Part shown: in pieces, positions 3,092 through 10,445 of the stretch
Layout of the letters: every line of letters begins with the position of its first letter
Numbering within the stretch: the stretch's first letter is position 1
Origin: Rickettsiales bacterium UBA4311
GTDB lineage: Bacteria > Pseudomonadota > Alphaproteobacteria > Rickettsiales > Deianiraeaceae
Length of the DNA stretch: 64,000 nt
Assembly: GCA_002394665.1 (NCBI GenBank)
Contig: DGUL01000007.1
Span: 30,860-94,859, forward strand
Reading direction: 5' to 3'
The notes under the pieces: generated by a model
What the model saw: only the letters and a program-made list of their open reading frames with translations
Told to the model about the DNA's origin: nothing
The model's database searches: none
Program-made: the position numbers and the translations under genes

Positions 3092-4054
3092 ATGGATATT
3101 TATGGTAATTTATATGAATTTAATCAAAAAGGTCATATAATAGTAAATGGTAAAGAACTTTATGGAGCATGTAATAAACGTCCTGTCGATATCAAGAGAC
3201 AAACCTTGCGTAATAAATATGAACGACCACCACACTTTACAATTAAGATAGGTAATAACGAGATTAAGGCTGACTCAATACAAGTTATTCACGATCTGAC
3301 GACAAAACGTCGTGATTTAGTGTCTTTTGCGCCTGCGGTTGACGAAGATGAAGAAAATAAAAAAAAGCATCTGTCCAAGCAAATTGATATTAACGGTATC
3401 CCTATTAGGATGAATCCAGAAGACGTGGAAATATACTTAAACATGGTTCCGACAATAAAAAACAAAAAGATTATAGATTATAAATCTTGTCCAACTATTA
3501 AAGTTAAAGTACCGTTTAGTTTATATTCTTGGCGCAATCAAGAAAATGGAAGCATAGAAAAAATATTGTATGATATTACAAAAGATACAGGTTCATTAGA
3601 CATAGTATTAGAAAAAAACCGAGTAATACATGGATATTATACCCACAGCAAAGGTAATGTCATTGATATATATGAAATACAACCGGATTTGTCAAATCCA
3701 GGTAAATTTAAAAAAATACAGCGATTATCGCAAAAACTACAAGATGATTATCAAGATATAGCTGTAATTAACAATAAAATTTTCCTATATAAGGACGATC
3801 CTAGACCAAACGTTGAAGTCTATCAAATCTTGCAAGATAGTATTCAACACACATTCAGTGCTAAAAATAATGATGCTTATTCTATGCAAGATTTTTTAAA
3901 TCGGACAAATCTTAAAACTTTTCAAGCAATATCAAGAGATGATTATGCCAAAATGGAACAAGAATATATTAAAAATATGTTAACACAACAAAATATTAAC
4001 AACGCAGGATTGACAATAAATCTTGAAAATGAGAAAGGAGGAATTAAAAAATGA
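3092..4054 (+). CDS. hypothetical protein (320 aa), no domain recognised
   Basis: Long ORF with non-repetitive composition and no signal peptide or TM segment. An in-frame stop lies at 3029-3031 and there is no ATG, GTG or TTG between that stop and the ATG at 3092. Confidence 0.5.
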   Translation: MDIYGNLYEFNQKGHIIVNGKELYGACNKRPVDIKRQTLRNKYERPPHFTIKIGNNEIKADSIQVIHDLTTKRRDLVSFAPAVDEDEENKKKHLSKQIDINGIPIRMNPEDVEIYLNMVPTIKNKKIIDYKSCPTIKVKVPFSLYSWRNQENGSIEKILYDITKDTGSLDIVLEKNRVIHGYYTHSKGNVIDIYEIQPDLSNPGKFKKIQRLSQKLQDDYQDIAVINNKIFLYKDDPRPNVEVYQILQDSIQHTFSAKNNDAYSMQDFLNRTNLKTFQAISRDDYAKMEQEYIKNMLTQQNINNAGLTINLENEKGGIKK

Positions 4055-4057
4055 ATA

Positions 4058-4714
4058 CTAAATAGTTTTAGTATCATATATTAGCTTTTTAATCTCACTT
4101 TTTGCAAATTCAATATCAGGATCGGTAACAATTGGAATAGCGATTTTGATAATTTCATCAACTGGTAAATTCCACCATTGCCACTTTTCAAGTAATTCAA
4201 TCATTTCATCGTCAAATCTTTTACGAATAACTTTTGCTGGATTTCCGCCGACTATACAGTAAGCAGGAACGTCTTTCACGACATGCGAATTTGTCGCAAT
4301 TATCGCACCGTTTCCAATTTTTACACCAGGCATAATTGTTACATTTTCGCCAATCCAAACGTCATTTCCGACAATCGTGTCGCCTTTATAAACATGATGA
4401 CTTTGCTGATAGCTATCACCAGGAAAGCCGTTCATAATTGAAAACGGAAAAGTAGATGCACGATTATAGTCATGATTACAGTCATTCATGAAAAATTTTA
4501 CACCCTTTGCTATTGAGCAAAATTTGCCAATTATTAATTTATCTTTACTAAACTGATAATGATGTAAAATCCCGCTTTCAAAATCATCGGTGCCATAGCT
4601 AAAATCTCCGGCCTCAAAATTATGATGCTTTATTGATTTCAAATAAATTTGCGTTTTCAAACCACATTTCAATGGATAAATTTCATTTGGATTTGGTTTT
4701 TTATTTGCCACCAT
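4058..4714 (-). CDS. Vat-family / XAT-class xenobiotic O-acetyltransferase (streptogramin A or chloramphenicol acetyltransferase-like hexapeptide protein)
   Basis: PNPNEIYP N-terminus, LIIGKFCSI, KGDTIVGNDVWIGENVTIMPGVKIGNGAIIATNSHVVKDVPAYCIVGGNPAKVIRKRF and WQWWNLPVDEI closely follow Vat(D)/CatB-type proteins. Confidence 0.8.
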   Translation of the reverse strand: MVANKKPNPNEIYPLKCGLKTQIYLKSIKHHNFEAGDFSYGTDDFESGILHHYQFSKDKLIIGKFCSIAKGVKFFMNDCNHDYNRASTFPFSIMNGFPGDSYQQSHHVYKGDTIVGNDVWIGENVTIMPGVKIGNGAIIATNSHVVKDVPAYCIVGGNPAKVIRKRFDDEMIELLEKWQWWNLPVDEIIKIAIPIVTDPDIEFAKSEIKKLIYDTKTI

Positions 4715-4727
4715 ATTAACACACTAA
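4715..4727 (-). repeat. his-cluster junction motif, truncated copy (ATTAACACACTAA) spanning the hisF stop and the base before the vat start
   Basis: On the coding strand TTAGTGTGTTAAT-ATG encodes the last hisF residues LVC*. It matches the core of the copies at 5470 and 8090. Confidence 0.7.
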
Positions 4728-5468
4728 AACTTCTCTTTCCATCAACTTATTTTTTAATTCTTTAATATCAATCAAATTCTCGTGAAACACGCTTGCACCC
4801 AATGCACCGGAAACACCAGTTTTTTGAAAAACTTCCACAAAATCTTCAATGCACCCTGCCCCTCCGCTGGCTATTACAGGCACTTTTACAAGTTTTGTAA
4901 TTTTATCCAACAACTCAATATCAAACCCGTTTTTAGTGCCATCAAAAGACATGGAATTCACGACAATCTCGCCCGCTCCGCGATTTTCAACTTCCTTTGC
5001 CCAGTCAAAAATGCTCCATTTGCACTTTTCTGTTTTATCAACATTGCCTGTGTTTTTGTATATCTCTCCGCCTTTCGTGTCAATCCCAACGACCAAAGTT
5101 GAAGAACCAAAATTTTTAACAATCTCATCAATCAAATCAGGATTTTTCAATGCAGGCGAGTTAATTGATACCTTGTCAGCCCCCATTTTTAGGCACCTCT
5201 CCACCTTTTTGCAACAATCAATATTTCCAGCAACACAAAAAGGAATATTGATTTTTTTTGCAACATCTTCGATCATTTTTGTATCAATTTCTGTGCCGTT
5301 TGCGGATGCCAAAACGTCATACAAAACCAGCTCATTTATGCCGTTTTTGCAGTATTTTTCTGCCAACTCAACGGCTTCTCCAATGACTTCGTGATTGCTG
5401 AATTTCACACCCTTGACAACTTTTCCATTTGCAATATCAAGACAAGCAATTATTCGTTTTGTTATCAT
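4716..5468 (-). CDS. hisF: imidazole glycerol phosphate synthase, cyclase subunit HisF
   Basis: KRIIACLDI N-terminus, LVLYDV, VSINSPA, VVGID, VIASGGAG: a typical HisF (beta/alpha)8 barrel. Confidence 0.95.
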   Translation of the reverse strand: MITKRIIACLDIANGKVVKGVKFSNHEVIGEAVELAEKYCKNGINELVLYDVLASANGTEIDTKMIEDVAKKINIPFCVAGNIDCCKKVERCLKMGADKVSINSPALKNPDLIDEIVKNFGSSTLVVGIDTKGGEIYKNTGNVDKTEKCKWSIFDWAKEVENRGAGEIVVNSMSFDGTKNGFDIELLDKITKLVKVPVIASGGAGCIEDFVEVFQKTGVSGALGASVFHENLIDIKELKNKLMEREVLVC

Positions 5469-5469
5469 G

Positions 5470-5496
5470 TTAACATATTAACACACTAAAATTTTA
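5470..5496 (-). repeat. his-cluster junction motif copy upstream of hisF
   Basis: TTAACATATTAACACACTAAAATTTTA. It matches the copy at 8090-8116 at 22 of 27 positions (hand count) and lies 1 nt from the hisF ATG. Confidence 0.7.
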
Positions 5497-5510
5497 TTTT
5501 TCAAGTTTTA

Positions 5511-6265
5511 TTATTTCTTTTTCAAATCTTCGTATATTGGTTCAAATGTTTCTAATTTTTTTAAAAATTGATTTTTTTCTTCTTCTGTCTTATTTTTAAT
5601 CTTATCGTAAATTTGTTGTTGAAATGCTTTAACATTTTCTTCTGTTTGTTCTTCATACGATTTTATTGGCAATAAATCTTTCCAAAATGGTCCCCCAAAA
5701 ACCACTATTTATTTTATAACTATATTTTTCTCTTGTCAAACCATTTAAGAATGGAAAACATTTATCAATGTTATCATATGCTTTTTGATGTTCTGCATCA
5801 TAAGTGCAACAATGTCCTATAATACAATCTTTTTGCGATGTAATTCAACCATTTTCTACCTTTCCATTCTTCTTGTAATACTCTGTCACATAATTCAGAA
5901 AAAGTAATTGTTTCATGATTTTTTGCCGTTTCAATTAAAGTGTTTGCTATTGATAACAAATCTTGTGTTTTTTTATCTTGTGGTGTATTTTCTATTTCTA
6001 TGTCTTCTTTATAATCCCTACAAAAAAACCTTAATAAATATGCTTTTATTCCAGTAAGATTAAAAATTCTAATATAATCATTAATATTTTCTATTTTAAT
6101 TTTATTATTATCAATGTCAGCACTATCATCTATGAATTTTCTCGCTTCTTTTATTGTAAAGAATAGCCAAATAAATAAAACTAATAATGCAATCAAAAGT
6201 TCACAAGAACAAAAGCAATCAATAAAACCTTCACATTTCATATAAGCAAGATTAAAACAACCCAT
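5511..6265 (-). pseudogene. frameshifted ORF of unknown function occupying the position expected for hisA
   Basis: 155-aa ORF (5798-6265, N-terminal TM helix), then an open ~48-codon segment in another frame (DAEHQKAYDNIDKCFPFLNGLTREKYSYKINSGFWG...), then a 64-aa ORF (5511-5705). The third frame starts at a C5A5 run (5692-5701). No similarity to HisA by eye. Confidence 0.4.
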
Positions 6266-6269
6266 GCCT

Positions 6270-6277
6270 GGGGGGGG
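6270..6277. repeat. G8 homopolymer (C8 on the coding strand) between the hisH stop and the 155-aa ORF start
   Basis: cctggggggggtta. An 8-nt G/C homopolymer is conspicuous in this AT-rich sequence. Confidence 0.9.
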
Positions 6278-6859
6278 TTAATAGTCAACTGTTTTTCTCA
6301 ACCAATCTTCCAATATTTTCTCACCAATTTTACCACTTTTTTCAGGATGAAATTGCATTCCTATGAAATTGTTTTTTTGAATTATCGCAGAAATTTTTGT
6401 TCCAAAATAATCAACAAAAGCAGTTGTGTTTTTGCAAATTGGAACATAAAAATTATTGCAAAAATAAACAAACTCTCCTTGATATTTTCCGTTTTCAATG
6501 CAATTCCAACCCATTTGCGGAGATACTAAAACAGCAGGCAAATGCACAACTTTTTCATCAAAAATTCCAATGCATTTTGTGTCAAATTCTTGTGAAAAAG
6601 CACACATAATTTGCATCCCTAAGCAAATTCCTAAAATAGGTTTTTGCGTTGTCCGCAACGCATCAATCAAGTCTTGTTTTTGCAACATTTCCATTGCAAC
6701 TTTTGCGTTGCCAACTCCGGGTATAATTATCCTATCGCACGCATCAAACTCACTTTTATTTTTTACAATAACTATATCATTTTGCTCCAATCTTTCCAGA
6801 GCAAAACGAATAGAATTGATGTTATAACCACCACTGTTTAGTATTCCAATTTTTATCAT
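6278..6859 (-). CDS. hisH: imidazole glycerol phosphate synthase, glutaminase subunit HisH
   Basis: IIPGVGNA, catalytic PILGICLGMQ, QFHPEKSG: a class I amidotransferase triad. Confidence 0.95.
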   Translation of the reverse strand: MIKIGILNSGGYNINSIRFALERLEQNDIVIVKNKSEFDACDRIIIPGVGNAKVAMEMLQKQDLIDALRTTQKPILGICLGMQIMCAFSQEFDTKCIGIFDEKVVHLPAVLVSPQMGWNCIENGKYQGEFVYFCNNFYVPICKNTTAFVDYFGTKISAIIQKNNFIGMQFHPEKSGKIGEKILEDWLRKTVDY

Positions 6860-6867
6860 AAATTACT

Positions 6868-6894
6868 TTAATATGTTAATATACTAATACGATA
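6868..6894 (-). repeat. his-cluster junction motif copy upstream of hisH
   Basis: TTAATATGTTAATATACTAATACGATA. It matches the hisD copy at 24 of 27 positions and lies 8 nt from the hisH ATG. Confidence 0.75.
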
Positions 6895-6896
6895 AA

Positions 6897-8084
6897 TTAT
6901 TTAATTCTTGAAATAATGCTCTCTGCGTGGAAGCCTAAACCCTCATTTTTAGCCATACAAATAGTTTTTTCTGCAACATTTTGCAAACCATTTTTCGTAG
7001 CGGTTTGAAATGTTATAAACTTACCAAATGACAACACGGAAAGGCCGGAAAAACCTTTCGCAAAACCGCTTGTAGGCAGTACGTGATTTGTGCCACTCAA
7101 ATAATCTCCCAAGCTTTCGCTCGTATATTTGCCTATAAAAACACTTCCTGCGTTTGTAATTTTTTCAGCAATTTCTTCTGCGTTTTTCGTATTGATTATC
7201 AAATGTTCCGGCGCGATTTCATTAGATTTTTTAACCGCTTCATCAAGATTTTTTGCAACTTCAATTTGCAAATTATTCAATGATTTTTCCAGCAAATTCC
7301 AACGATTTGACTGCCCGGCAATGGTTTTAATATTATCTTTAATCCATTCCGCTTGCGTATCATCGGTTGTCAAAAGCCAAGCCTTACTTTCTTTTCCGTG
7401 TTCTAATTGTGCCAATAAATCGTACATTGTATCCTCTTTTTTTGCAGTCTCGTCGGCGATGACAAGCACTTCGCTTGGCCCTGCCGGCATATCAATGGCG
7501 ACAAATTGAGAGACCATTTTTTTTGCCGTATCAACAAATTCATTGCCAGGGCCGAAAATTTTATCAACTTTTGGAACATCACCGATGCCGTATGCCATAG
7601 CAAAAATCGCCTGTGCTCCGCCGATTGTGTAAATTTTCTCAACACCAAGTTGTTGCAAAGTGAACAAAATGGCTTGCGAAGGGTTCGGCGGAGTGCAAAC
7701 AATAATGTTTTTGCAACCCGTGATCTGTGCCGGAATTATATTCATCAACGCACTTGAAAATAGCATATTCGGCACATAAACTCCAACATTTTCAATTGGC
7801 GTGAATTTCCTCCAACACGTTATTTCAGTTGAAGTTTCAATTTTATCATTCTTAAATTCTTCAAGTTTTTTCGCTTCTGCTTTGTGAAATTTTGTAATAT
7901 TCTCTATCGCTGTTTTTATCGCTGTTTCAAGGTTTTTGTCAACTTTAATGTTATCAGGAATTTTGAAAATCAAACTATTTCCTTCAAGTTTATCAAATTT
8001 TCTTGACAACTCTAATAGTCCTTCTTGCCCTTTGTTTATACAAATCTCTCTAATTTCTTCAACAATTTTTGCTGTATCATTCAT
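6897..8084 (-). CDS. hisD: histidinol dehydrogenase HisD
   Basis: YTIGGAQAI, GPGNEFV, PAGPSEVLVIAD, APEHLII, GTNHVLPTSG. Confidence 0.95.
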   Translation of the reverse strand: MNDTAKIVEEIREICINKGQEGLLELSRKFDKLEGNSLIFKIPDNIKVDKNLETAIKTAIENITKFHKAEAKKLEEFKNDKIETSTEITCWRKFTPIENVGVYVPNMLFSSALMNIIPAQITGCKNIIVCTPPNPSQAILFTLQQLGVEKIYTIGGAQAIFAMAYGIGDVPKVDKIFGPGNEFVDTAKKMVSQFVAIDMPAGPSEVLVIADETAKKEDTMYDLLAQLEHGKESKAWLLTTDDTQAEWIKDNIKTIAGQSNRWNLLEKSLNNLQIEVAKNLDEAVKKSNEIAPEHLIINTKNAEEIAEKITNAGSVFIGKYTSESLGDYLSGTNHVLPTSGFAKGFSGLSVLSFGKFITFQTATKNGLQNVAEKTICMAKNEGLGFHAESIISRIK

Positions 8085-8089
8085 AAATT

Positions 8090-8116
8090 TTAATATATTA
8101 ACACACTAATACGATA
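8090..8116 (-). repeat. his-cluster junction motif copy upstream of hisD
   Basis: TTAATATATTAACACACTAATACGATA, 5 nt from the hisD ATG. It contains the perfect palindrome TTAATATATTAA. Confidence 0.75.
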
Positions 8117-8216
8117 GTATAATAAAAATACAAAAGTCAAGATGATTTTTTTGTTATGATTTTTATTTTCTTGAACTTTATCTTGTTTAATAACGAAAAA
8201 GAAATGAAAACACATT

Positions 8217-9062
8217 CTACCTAAACATCAAATTTATGTCGCTTACAATAATACCCTCAGCACCAAATTCTTTAAGCTTTTTGCATACTTCAAAAATTTT
8301 ATCTTTTTTACAAAGCGTGTGAATCGCAACATAATCACTATCAATCAAATTCAAAATTGTTGGAGAATTTATAGAAGGAAGCACATTTTTAATATCGTTA
8401 ACTAAGTCTTTTTTTAAATTAAACATCAAATATTTTTGCTTCTTACCAAGTAAAACTGCGTCAATTCTTGCAATTAAATCATTTAAAATTTCACTTGAAA
8501 AATCTTTATTTTTTATCAAAACTGCTTCAAGATTTAAAACTTTTTTCAGCTCTTTTAACCCTTGTTGCATCAAAGTTGACCCAGTTTGAACAATGTCGAA
8601 AATGTAATCAGCAAAACCAAGTTCAACTGAAGTTTCAACAGAACCAGACATTTTTACTATACTTGCATTTATGTTATTTTTCTCTAAAAAATCCCGTAAA
8701 ATATTCGTATAACTTGTTGCAATTGTGGAATTTTGAACTTGTAAAATATCCCAGTTTTTGTAGACACCTCTACCGGCAAAAGAAAGATGACATTTCGAAA
8801 ACCCAAGCTTCCTGACTATTTCGGTTTTTTCTTCCATTTTATATTCCAAAAAACTGTCCATTCCGAGAACTGCGACATCAAATTGCCTATGTATTAAAAC
8901 GGGGATATCGGCACCTCTTACAAAATAAATTTCCAAAGGAAAATCTAAAAAACTGCAACAAAGTTTTTTATATCCACTTGTTTGAAGCCCGCAATTCTCA
9001 AGCAAATTTAAAAAATCATTTGAAATTCTATCGCTTTTTTGAATCGCAATTCTAAGTTTCAT
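8217..9062 (-). CDS. hisG: ATP phosphoribosyltransferase HisG (long form with C-terminal regulatory domain)
   Basis: LRIAIQKSDRIS, GADIPVLI, IATSYTNIL, DIVQTGSTL, and a C-terminal ~90-aa domain (281 aa total). Confidence 0.9.
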   Translation of the reverse strand: MKLRIAIQKSDRISNDFLNLLENCGLQTSGYKKLCCSFLDFPLEIYFVRGADIPVLIHRQFDVAVLGMDSFLEYKMEEKTEIVRKLGFSKCHLSFAGRGVYKNWDILQVQNSTIATSYTNILRDFLEKNNINASIVKMSGSVETSVELGFADYIFDIVQTGSTLMQQGLKELKKVLNLEAVLIKNKDFSSEILNDLIARIDAVLLGKKQKYLMFNLKKDLVNDIKNVLPSINSPTILNLIDSDYVAIHTLCKKDKIFEVCKKLKEFGAEGIIVSDINLMFR

Positions 9063-9063
9063 A

Positions 9064-9345
9064 TTACTTTTTTTTTAAAAGATTTTTCAAAACCCACCTA
9101 TAACCACCGAATTTTTCATCCTTTAAAAATCTCGCAACTCTTGTAATTGTTGTAGTGCTCGCACCGGTTTTTTTTGAAATTTCTGTATAAGGTATTTCTT
9201 GTGCAAGCAAAACCGCAACTTCAAGCCTTTGTTGTAATGCATCTAATTCTTTGGGGGTTGTGATGTCTTTTAAAAAATTCAACATGACTCTTCTGTCGTT
9301 TATTTTTGCTAAAATTGTAGATAAATTCAAATCATTCTTAGACAT
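9064..9345 (-). CDS. TrpR-family / YerC-YecD-like DNA-binding protein
   Basis: TPKELDALQQRLEVAVLL...TGASTTTITRVARFLK helix-turn-helix resembles TrpR and B. subtilis YerC. Its stop is 1 nt from the hisG ATG (TAA-T-ATG). Confidence 0.75.
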   Translation of the reverse strand: MSKNDLNLSTILAKINDRRVMLNFLKDITTPKELDALQQRLEVAVLLAQEIPYTEISKKTGASTTTITRVARFLKDEKFGGYRWVLKNLLKKK

Positions 9346-9365
9346 AAAAATAATAAAATTTGACT

Positions 9366-9392
9366 TTAATGTATTAACATATTGAAACGATA
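9366..9392 (-). repeat. his-cluster junction motif copy in the yerC-like / hisC divergent intergenic region
   Basis: TTAATGTATTAACATATTGAAACGATA. It matches the hisD copy at 22 of 27 positions and lies 20 nt upstream of the yerC-like ATG. Confidence 0.7.
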
Positions 9393-9425
9393 TATCAAAA
9401 AAATAATTGTCAATTTATTAATAAT

Positions 9426-10445
9426 ATGTTTTTGAATAAAGCATTGGAAAAAATGGAAAAATATGAAACACCCTTGCTTCCAGAAAGAGTTAAAAGACAA
9501 CATTTTAATGAATTGCACCAAACGATTTTACCAACAGACGTTTTGTTAGAAAATATTGATAAAAATTTAAACTTCTATCCTGAAAACCTTTACGAAGAAC
9601 TAACAAAAAAAGCACAAATATTTTACAATATCAATGAAAAAAAAATCGTCCCTACAAATGGAAGCGACGAGGGAATTGATTTGGTAATTAGAACATTTTG
9701 TAATCCAAATGATAAAATTTTAGTGCAAAAACCAACTTTCGCTATGTACAAGCAATACGCGGAGGCTTTTCAAGTTAACATTGTTGAAAGTGAAATTATT
9801 TTTCAAAATAATCAGTGGTTTGTTGATTTTGACAAATTGATCAATGATGCGAAACGAAACAAAGCAAAAATAATTTTTATTACAAACCCATTGGCACATT
9901 TGGGTGTTTTACTGAGTAAAAAAGACGTACTAAAATTGGTAAAATCATTGCCAAACATCGCAGTAGTTGTCGATGAAGCTTATATTGAATTTGTTGAAAA
10001 CTATCAAGAAATTAGTTGTATTGATGCGATAAACGAATTTAACAACTTAATTATTTTGAGGACTTTTTCAAAATTTTTCGGTCTCGCCGGAATAAGACTC
10101 GGGTTTGTATTTTCTGACTTTAAAGGAGAAATTTGTAAAATAAAATCTCCAGATAATGTTAGTGCTTTGACTTGTAAAGTTGGAATAAATGTTTTTAATA
10201 ACATAAGAAAAAAAAATATTAAAGAAAGACAAAAATTGGTAAAAAACAAAGTCAAAAAACTATCATCTTGGCTGAAAAATTTTGAAGAAGTTGAAAAAGT
10301 TTTTGAAACAAATACAAATTTTGTTCTAGTAAAATTAAGGTGTCAGTCAAAAATTTTTGCAGAAAAACTTTTTGAAAAATTTCAAATCAAAATTAGAGCT
10401 TTCGGAGGCGATTTTGAAAATTATTGCAGAATTTCAGTTGTATAG
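9426..10445 (+). CDS. hisC: histidinol-phosphate aminotransferase HisC
   Basis: NGSDEGIDLVIRTF, VVVDEAYIEF, PLP-lysine motif RTFSKFFGLAGIRLGF. Confidence 0.9.
   Translation: MFLNKALEKMEKYETPLLPERVKRQHFNELHQTILPTDVLLENIDKNLNFYPENLYEELTKKAQIFYNINEKKIVPTNGSDEGIDLVIRTFCNPNDKILVQKPTFAMYKQYAEAFQVNIVESEIIFQNNQWFVDFDKLINDAKRNKAKIIFITNPLAHLGVLLSKKDVLKLVKSLPNIAVVVDEAYIEFVENYQEISCIDAINEFNNLIILRTFSKFFGLAGIRLGFVFSDFKGEICKIKSPDNVSALTCKVGINVFNNIRKKNIKERQKLVKNKVKKLSSWLKNFEEVEKVFETNTNFVLVKLRCQSKIFAEKLFEKFQIKIRAFGGDFENYCRISVV

Follow-up and report, generated by a model that had tools for sequence, protein, structure and literature searches.

YerC of Bacillus subtilis is HisR, a histidine repressor of the TrpR family whose operators are 20-bp palindromes with a lineage-specific consensus, TGTAnTArnnnnyTnTTACA in Proteobacteria (Ashniev et al. 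2022, BMC Genomics, PMC9413887). In the same study, proteobacterial his operons have one HisR site and split actinobacterial operons have at most two, histidine-dependent DNA binding was observed in vitro for the HisR of R. gnavus, PDB entry 3G1C was used as the HisR structure, and the Rickettsiales lie outside the genome set that was covered (PMC9413887). Here, a his gene cluster from this order is compared with these systems. It is located in a stretch of 64 kb (hereafter, the window) from Rickettsiales bacterium UBA4311, family Deianiraeaceae (contig DGUL01000007.1, positions 30,860 to 94,859 of the forward strand). The cluster contains four full copies and one shortened copy of a repeated motif, all on the minus strand and located directly 5' of hisR (yerC)/hisC, hisD, hisH, hisF and a vat-like gene. 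In all likelihood, these copies are predicted operators of HisR, histidine-dependent and arranged in arrays with an 8-bp phase, the regulator itself being encoded at the head of the cluster.

This assignment draws in part on the match to the published sites. A symmetric position weight matrix (PWM) was derived from the 31 proteobacterial sites in Additional file 3 of PMC9413887, with no sequence from the window used. The six best matches to this literature PWM in the 64 kb fall exactly on the five places where the motif is found, and the next match scores 8.2. The top match in the window is the 20-bp site CGTTTCAATATGTTAATACA between hisR and hisC (9370-9389, 17.8 bits), followed by the sites at hisD (8094-8113, 16.1 bits), hisF (5466-5485, 12.0 bits, overlapping the hisF start codon), hisH (6872-6891, 11.3 bits) and the hisF/vat junction, which has two (4704-4723, 10.0 bits, and 4712-4731, 8.3 bits). 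Altogether, 4 to 5 matches reach 10 bits or more, compared with 0.44 expected. The hisR site is equal to a published Francisella site, TGTACTAATATGTTAATACA, in 16 of the 20 positions. The Firmicutes-type HisR consensus, cacTTTAnnnnnnTAAAgtg, was considered as well but shows only partial matches, judged by eye, and the proteobacterial consensus fits much better. The first-pass annotation of this DNA had suggested that the motif could be an operator for the co-encoded TrpR/YerC-like regulator, and this idea is now backed by the HisR-site matrix and by the identity of YerC with HisR (PMC9413887).

The presumed binder of the arrays, judging from its family assignment, is the 93-aa product of hisR (9064-9345, minus strand), a gene whose stop codon is 1 nt from the ATG of hisG. 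This protein scores 58.7 bits with the NCBIfam model TIGR02531 (yecD_yerC), above the cutoff of 42.2, and matches the Trp_repressor family PF01371 of Pfam at 1e-20, but fails the TrpR equivalog model TIGR01321 (36.7 versus a cutoff of 67.25). Its nearest PDB entries are 3FRW, 3G1C and 3KOR, whereas the TrpR chains in the PDB reach only E ~1e-3. The recognition-helix segment of the helix-turn-helix, GASTTTITRVARFL, aligns with GASTATISRVNRSL of 3FRW and 3G1C, and the stretch TITRVARFL is invariant across 20 homologues. The closest homologues, with 60-73% identity, are annotated as Rickettsiales metagenome-assembled genomes (MAGs) and Candidatus Deianiraea vastatrix, and an identical HisR-like protein is encoded on metagenome contigs including the 204-kb ENA ERZ12302815 NODE_52 and Logan SRR873597, with dnaA ~9 kb away.

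Read on the minus (coding) strand, the copies are TATCGTTTCAATATGTTAATACATTAA at hisR (9392-9366, 20 nt from the ATG, 22/27 identical to the hisD copy), TATCGTATTAGTGTGTTAATATATTAA at hisD (8116-8090, 5 nt from the ATG), TATCGTATTAGTATATTAACATATTAA at hisH (6894-6868, 8 nt, 24/27), TAAAATTTTAGTGTGTTAATATGTTAA at hisF (5496-5470, 1 nt, 22/27) and the operator-like half array TTTTAGTGTGTTAATATG at the hisF/vat junction (4704-4731), which abuts the vat ATG. The coordinates, sequences, spacings and identities of the first-pass annotation were all rechecked against the sequence and are right. The 20-nt core, with up to three mismatches allowed, matches only the hisD, hisH and hisF copies in the 64 kb (chance expectation, 0.02), and the phased pattern TTARYRYRTTAAYRYR, searched on both strands, has nine matches, all within the five motif places, versus 0.04 expected, so that chance can be ruled out as an explanation. 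The 13-mer GTGTGTTAATATG, previously reported as identical at the hisF and vat junctions, is indeed exact at 4712-4724 and 5474-5486, and the shared identity extends to 18 nt, TTTTAGTGTGTTAATATG. A second PWM, constructed from the four full copies, yields no further copy in the 64 kb save a weak match at 3972-3998 (minus strand). As far as this window is concerned, the earlier remark that the motif was not noticed beyond the cluster is correct. The motif was also considered as a genome-wide AT-rich repeat, a possibility that is rejected because neither PWM gives further copies in the 64 kb.

Although the recurrence of the motif stands, a single 27-mer, as initially perceived, is not its unit: what repeats, in short tandem arrays, is a unit of 8 bp, TTAR-YRYR. 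This structure was recognized because the element is longer in related genomes, for example, 5' of hisD, where the array has four units in the window and seven in L003 and L086 and reads, in the roe deer rumen genome L003, TATCATAT TATCGTAT TAACGTGT TAATATAT TAACATGA TAATATAC TAAAATTT. The window arrays contain three phased TTAR tetrads each and the vat junction contains two, with an additional 5' unit, TTAT/CTAT-CGTA, in the hisD and hisH arrays. Two neighboring TTAR tetrads and the sequences that flank them make up an imperfect palindrome of 20 bp, such as cGTATTAG-TGTG-TTAATAtA, of the proteobacterial HisR type (TGTAnTAr-N4-yTAnTACA). As this applies to any such pair, n units provide n-1 overlapping sites, shifted by 8 bp from one to the next. 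The dyad symmetry described earlier is real and corresponds to the TTAA-N4-TTAA core of these overlapping palindromes.

The same architecture is known from the E. coli TrpR operators (trpEDCBA, aroH and trpR), where self-complementary tetrads recur every 8 bp and likewise produce overlapping 20-bp palindromes. TrpR dimers reportedly bind in tandem at an 8-bp offset (PDB 1TRR). The TrpR operator overlaps the -10 region, and the amino acid that is the end product of the pathway serves as the co-repressor, both of which are also proposed here for HisR. The tetrads are CTAG in the TrpR sites (half-site and spacing from PMC9413887) and TTAA or TTAG in the window arrays. The presence of tandem half-sites in 8-bp phase, as in the TrpR regulon, indicates a shared mode of working and not membership in that regulon. 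The regulator here differs from TrpR in failing the equivalog model and in its presumed effector, histidine, and the arrays differ in being longer (up to seven units in the relatives) and dispersed within one cluster.

Compared with the published HisR systems (PMC9413887 and the RegPrecise HisR regulons), the regulator family (TIGR02531, PF01371, less than 100 aa), the proteobacterial type of the sites and the presence of a site just 5' of hisR are the same, and the position of the latter implies autoregulation. The differences lie in the number and placement of the sites. In the clade to which the window belongs, the site is multiplied to phased arrays of 3 to 7 units, the repeats occur at at least five places within the cluster, and some copies touch or overlap start codons, one being written into the end of hisF.

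These differences appear to be confined to one lineage. The same literature PWM was applied to the surroundings of HisR homologues in GTDB species genomes (79 loci, designated L003 and so on). The sites are found nearly exclusively 30-250 bp upstream of hisR, and in 13 loci, there are two matches exactly 8 bp apart; the 8-bp tandem phasing is therefore a general property of the family. In contrast, about 23 loci with a downstream his operon, including those of Deianiraea (L004) and L005, contain no internal site, so that the internal copies are a clade-specific elaboration. The nearest genomes to the window are rumen MAGs, L003 and L006 (SRR873596), with his proteins 80-90% identical to those of the window as compared by tblastn, which places the window on the chromosome of an uncultured member of the Rickettsiales. 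In this rumen clade (L003, L006, L082, L084, L086 and L087), arrays of 3-7 units, with PWM matches offset by exactly 8 bp, are located 5' of hisR/hisC, hisD, hisH, vat, hisF, hisB and hisA-IE. At hisH, the position of the window array is occupied in the relatives by one array or, often, by two, scoring 12 to 24, and at hisF, the scores are 15.1 in L006 and 16.2 and 12.0 in L084. No array was detected in the rumen clade 5' of the cargo genes, namely those for the methyltransferase, aldo-keto reductase, DUF5131, DUF1653 and HNH proteins and a 249-aa open reading frame (ORF). Thus, the internal arrays track the his genes and are maintained across genomes in which the intergenic flanks cannot be aligned. 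Scanning relatives with a motif model was one of the checks proposed in the first-pass annotation, and in five to six related rumen genomes the arrays do recur at the his gene starts.

One control region is shared by the divergent hisR and hisC genes (9360-9413), where the array (9366-9392) is flanked by TTGACA on the minus strand (9413-9408) and TTGACT on the plus strand (9360-9365). This layout, TTGAC..array..AGTCAA, with facing -35 boxes and the operator between them, is kept in L003, L006, L082, L086, Deianiraea (L004) and L005. Another is the hisD promoter-operator module (8090-8140, minus strand), for which the promoter scan gives TTGACT-N18-TATCGT: the TTGACT box (8140-8135) is followed by an 18-nt spacer, TATCGT (8116-8111) and the array, CTATCGTA TTAGTGTG TTAATATA TTAA, which ends 5 nt before the hisD ATG. 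In the alignment of the hisD upstream regions from five genomes, the sequence from the -35 box through the array is conserved and the flanks are unalignable; TTGAC[AT] (TTGATA in L084) is followed by a T-rich spacer of 17-18 nt and then by TATCGT, TATCAT or TATTAT, which is the first unit of the array. Given this conservation, the best operator would span about -9 to +11 of the predicted start, the classical occlusion layout. No terminator was found in the hisG-hisD spacer. The hisR module of the window and the hisD module of L006 are 83.6% identical over 55 nt, and both begin with TTGACAATTATTTT, as does the hisR promoter of Deianiraea, so that the ancestral hisR promoter-operator seems to have been duplicated to give the hisD module.

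At the remaining places, the evidence of promoters is weak and amounts to an extended -10-like sequence, TGTTAATAT. The hisH array (6868-6894, minus strand) consists of TTATCGTA TTAGTATA TTAACATA TTAA and ends 8 nt before the ATG, and the hisF array (5466-5496, minus strand) of TTAGTGTG TTAATATG TTAAC-ATG. At hisF, there is also a promoter-like TTGAAA-N18-TAATAT with an upstream TG, which would give a leaderless start. The earlier notion of an internal promoter is therefore plausible for the hisD copy, with its conserved -35 and -10 boxes, and weaker for the other copies. At the hisF/vat junction, the half array encodes the last residues of HisF, VLVC*. The C-terminus of HisF is VLVC* in L006 and L084 as it is in the window, and ILIRI* (Deianiraea) or GIEVRx* outside the clade, and the sequence TTTTAGTRTGTTAA-ATG is kept no matter whether vat (window) or an HNH gene (L006 and L084) follows hisF. 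This copy had been described as truncated, ending hisF and abutting the vat ATG. Its position is as described, but because the sequence is kept regardless of the next gene and the HisF end is specific to the clade, it appears to be an operator-like overprint on the last codons of hisF, conserved in the relatives, and not a truncated leftover.

Taken together, these comparisons, all at the level of sequence, suggest that the copy at the head of the cluster is the canonical site for autoregulation and for the his operon, and that the internal copies are a lineage-specific multiplication of it, of which one or more has a promoter of its own. With histidine as the co-repressor, HisR dimers would occupy the arrays. 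Between hisR and hisC, an occupied array would block both divergent promoters, resulting in autoregulation and control of hisC, and at hisD, where the array begins within the -10 hexamer, RNA polymerase would be occluded. The arrays of hisH, hisF and hisF/vat, located 0 to 8 nt from the start codon or over it, might either cover internal promoters of the weak or extended -10 type or act as roadblocks to read-through; at least some of the predicted operators are best read as overlapping internal promoters. The internal copies would have arisen in a single rumen Rickettsiales clade, one of them by overprinting on the end of hisF and the others by duplication of the promoter-operator module of the ancestral hisR. 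Such multiplication of the arrays would keep each his gene under the control of histidine despite the spacers and foreign cargo genes. The presumed regulated genes are hisG, hisD, hisH, the cargo ORF, hisF and the vat-like gene (4058-9062, minus strand). A bolder and rather improbable extension of this scheme is that the HisR operator became a portable promoter-operator cassette, on which a cooperative oligomer, covering up to seven 8-bp units, would serve both as a promoter block and as a roadblock, allowing gene-by-gene control, with the direct repeats letting selfish cargo (HNH, DUF5131, methyltransferase, vat) enter an essential biosynthetic cluster and move inside it while its regulation stays intact.

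Several observations weigh against the interpretation of all the arrays as HisR operators. The hisH, hisF and vat copies score just 8 to 12 bits on the literature PWM, and the relatives contain unexplained sites of 13-17 bits inside aro coding regions. An operator that abuts or overlaps a start codon within a co-directional cluster is unusual for HisR, and vat, which is not a his gene, is also located behind an array. The canonical -35/-10 geometry is convincing for hisD only, and promoter-like matches are common in this AT-rich DNA and just mildly enriched (37 in the window versus 24.7 expected), so that the internal-promoter step at hisH, hisF and vat is an inference. The single site upstream of hisR in published proteobacterial regulons, the clear paralogy of the modules and the lower scores of the internal copies on the literature PWM would fit a scenario in which only the hisR/hisC copy works as an operator and the copies at hisD, hisH, hisF and vat are neutral by-products of local duplication or gene conversion. 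However, five to six genomes, with coding DNA only ~78-86% identical to that of the window and with unalignable intergenic flanks, have kept the internal arrays at the starts of the same genes, the arrays follow his genes rather than cargo genes, and the -35 and -10 boxes of hisD are at a fixed spacing in all five genomes. Because of this conservation, non-functional internal copies are unlikely, and the neutral scenario is a decidedly improbable one.

The probability is smaller still that the arrays operate without HisR, be it as promoters, as UP-like AT-rich elements or as translation enhancers, each his gene being a separate unit that is started constitutively, possibly in a leaderless fashion. 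The arrays do hold the extended -10-like TGnTAATAT, the TTGAAA-N18-TAATAT of hisF would set the start on the A of the ATG, and there is no Shine-Dalgarno sequence before these genes. Nevertheless, the sequence is palindromic, phased at 8 bp and matched by an independent HisR matrix, and other genes in the window lack arrays. Among the 51 long ORFs in the window, just 2 carry a Shine-Dalgarno-like sequence at most 20 nt from the start; translation initiation in this genome appears to be independent of such sequences, and with this genome-wide scarcity, no special translation element is needed. Replacement of the Shine-Dalgarno sequence is rejected as a role of the motif on the same count, the his genes being not special in this respect. 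The RNA folding of the five motif regions is no better than that of shuffled sequences (z from -0.63 to +0.08), and a search of Rfam at gathering thresholds detects only two tRNAs in the window, with no T-box and no His leader; an RNA element is rejected on these grounds. The His leader attenuator and the histidine T-box would serve the same purpose, control of his genes by histidine, but neither RNA was detected in the window. The earlier suggestion of a translation-initiation element is thus unsupported, given the lack of RNA structure and of general Shine-Dalgarno use. A similarly slim chance can be assigned to the possibility that the arrays are recombination sites or scars, through which cargo (vat, HNH, DUF5131, methyltransferase) was captured or shuffled by an integron-like or a homologous mechanism. 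Such a role would be compatible with the variation of cargo content and order among the relatives, the different position of vat relative to hisF, the termination of homology blocks at the arrays and the identical 18-mers that flank hisF in the window. Against it, most cargo genes directly follow the preceding stop codon and have no array at their own 5' ends, the vat breakpoint in the window falls 16 nt beyond the array, without the leader that the relatives have, L003 and L086, which are without vat-hisF, have no array at the junction, the gene lists, with part of the window proteins screened, showed no integrase beside the cluster, and the sequence matches a transcription factor site. Simple array-to-array recombination was considered for the relocation of vat and rejected, the breakpoints not fitting cleanly. 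Recombination may be, at most, a side effect of the direct repeats, which may favor rearrangements. Hence the earlier view of the motif as a recombination scar finds no support as a description of its primary nature, the cargo being mostly array-free, although duplication of the promoter-operator module and variation of the gene order among the relatives, which belong to the same line of thought, are borne out.

If the arrays are HisR operators, as seems by far the most probable, the HisR regulon, so far known mainly from Firmicutes and a few proteobacterial groups, extends to uncultured rumen Rickettsiales, and the window and its relatives would illustrate, cleanly and from nature, the multiplication of a TrpR-family operator in 8-bp phase. 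What is unusual is the layout, with one operator array per his gene, one of these overprinted on a coding end, in a cluster full of foreign genes. It could serve as a test bed for the number of repressor dimers per phased array, for the regulation of a broken-up operon and for the promotion of gene shuffling by operator repeats. For genome annotation, it illustrates that a matrix derived from the literature can assign repeats near start codons to a regulator.

The genes of the cluster were called with Pfam and NCBIfam, in agreement with the identities assigned in the first-pass annotation. Apart from hisR, the minus strand encodes hisG (8217-9062), hisD (6897-8084), hisH (6278-6859), a frameshifted cargo ORF between hisH and hisF (5511-6265), hisF (4716-5468) and a vat-like hexapeptide acetyltransferase (4058-4714) that scores under the NCBIfam Vat cutoff. 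The HisC-like aminotransferase gene (9426-10445, plus strand; PF00155) diverges from the shared operator region, and its position is the same in L003-L006, L082 and L086; the layout hisC<->hisR-hisG-hisD-hisH is common to L003-L006 and many other Proteobacteria. A search with the proteins of the relatives found no hisB, hisA or hisIE in the 64 kb, so these genes are either elsewhere in the genome or lost. The two ORFs of 155 aa and 64 aa between hisH and hisF (5511-6277, minus strand) represent a single gene, homologous to the 249-aa ORF of L084, which in the window is split over three frames by two frameshifts and is preceded by a C8 run (6266-6277). This gene has no match in Pfam or NCBIfam and, being split by two frameshifts, is likely to be a pseudogene or to reflect an assembly error.

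Across the rumen clade, the his cluster is interrupted by varying foreign genes, which encode an S-adenosylmethionine methyltransferase, an aldo-keto reductase, DUF5131, DUF1653 and HNH proteins, a vat-like protein and a PQQ beta-propeller protein. Each of these usually starts where the his gene in front of it stops, or immediately after that stop codon. The vat gene precedes hisF in L006 and L084 and follows it in the window. In L084, there is a strong site directly after the vat stop codon; the weak array-like site of the window, TAATATTTTGTTGTGTTAACATATTTT (3972-3998, minus strand), located ~60 nt past the vat stop and scoring 12.5 with the window PWM, may be a relic of that site. A two-site array in L082 (19425-19452) is located 5' of an EamA-family (drug/metabolite transporter) gene adjoining hisB; in that relative, the regulon may thus include this gene as a candidate transporter related to histidine.

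In many other loci from Babeliales, Holosporales and other reduced genomes (L008, L010, L015, L017, L018, L026, L031, L034 and others), a strong HisR-type site precedes hisR by ~100 nt, close to locus position 9900. No his genes were detected in these 20-kb loci by similarity to the proteins of the window, and these HisR homologues may be autoregulated regulators with other targets, for example, transporters. The intragenic sites of the aro operon, which adjoins the cluster in the relatives and is not present in the window, are located at 1873, 2885, 3488, 3550 and 3847 in L006 and at 438, 1450 and 2053 in L003, with equivalents in L086 and L087. Two of these sites encode similar peptides in unrelated enzymes (NVLTRYND of prephenate dehydrogenase and NMLTRCNE of dehydroquinate synthase), a hint that the DNA sequence itself is under selection. 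The window as a whole has a low GC content of ~31%. Past vat, the cluster ends with an uncharacterized ORF of 320 aa (3092-4054), encoded on the opposite strand, and with a transposase of the IS1595 family (1993-2952).

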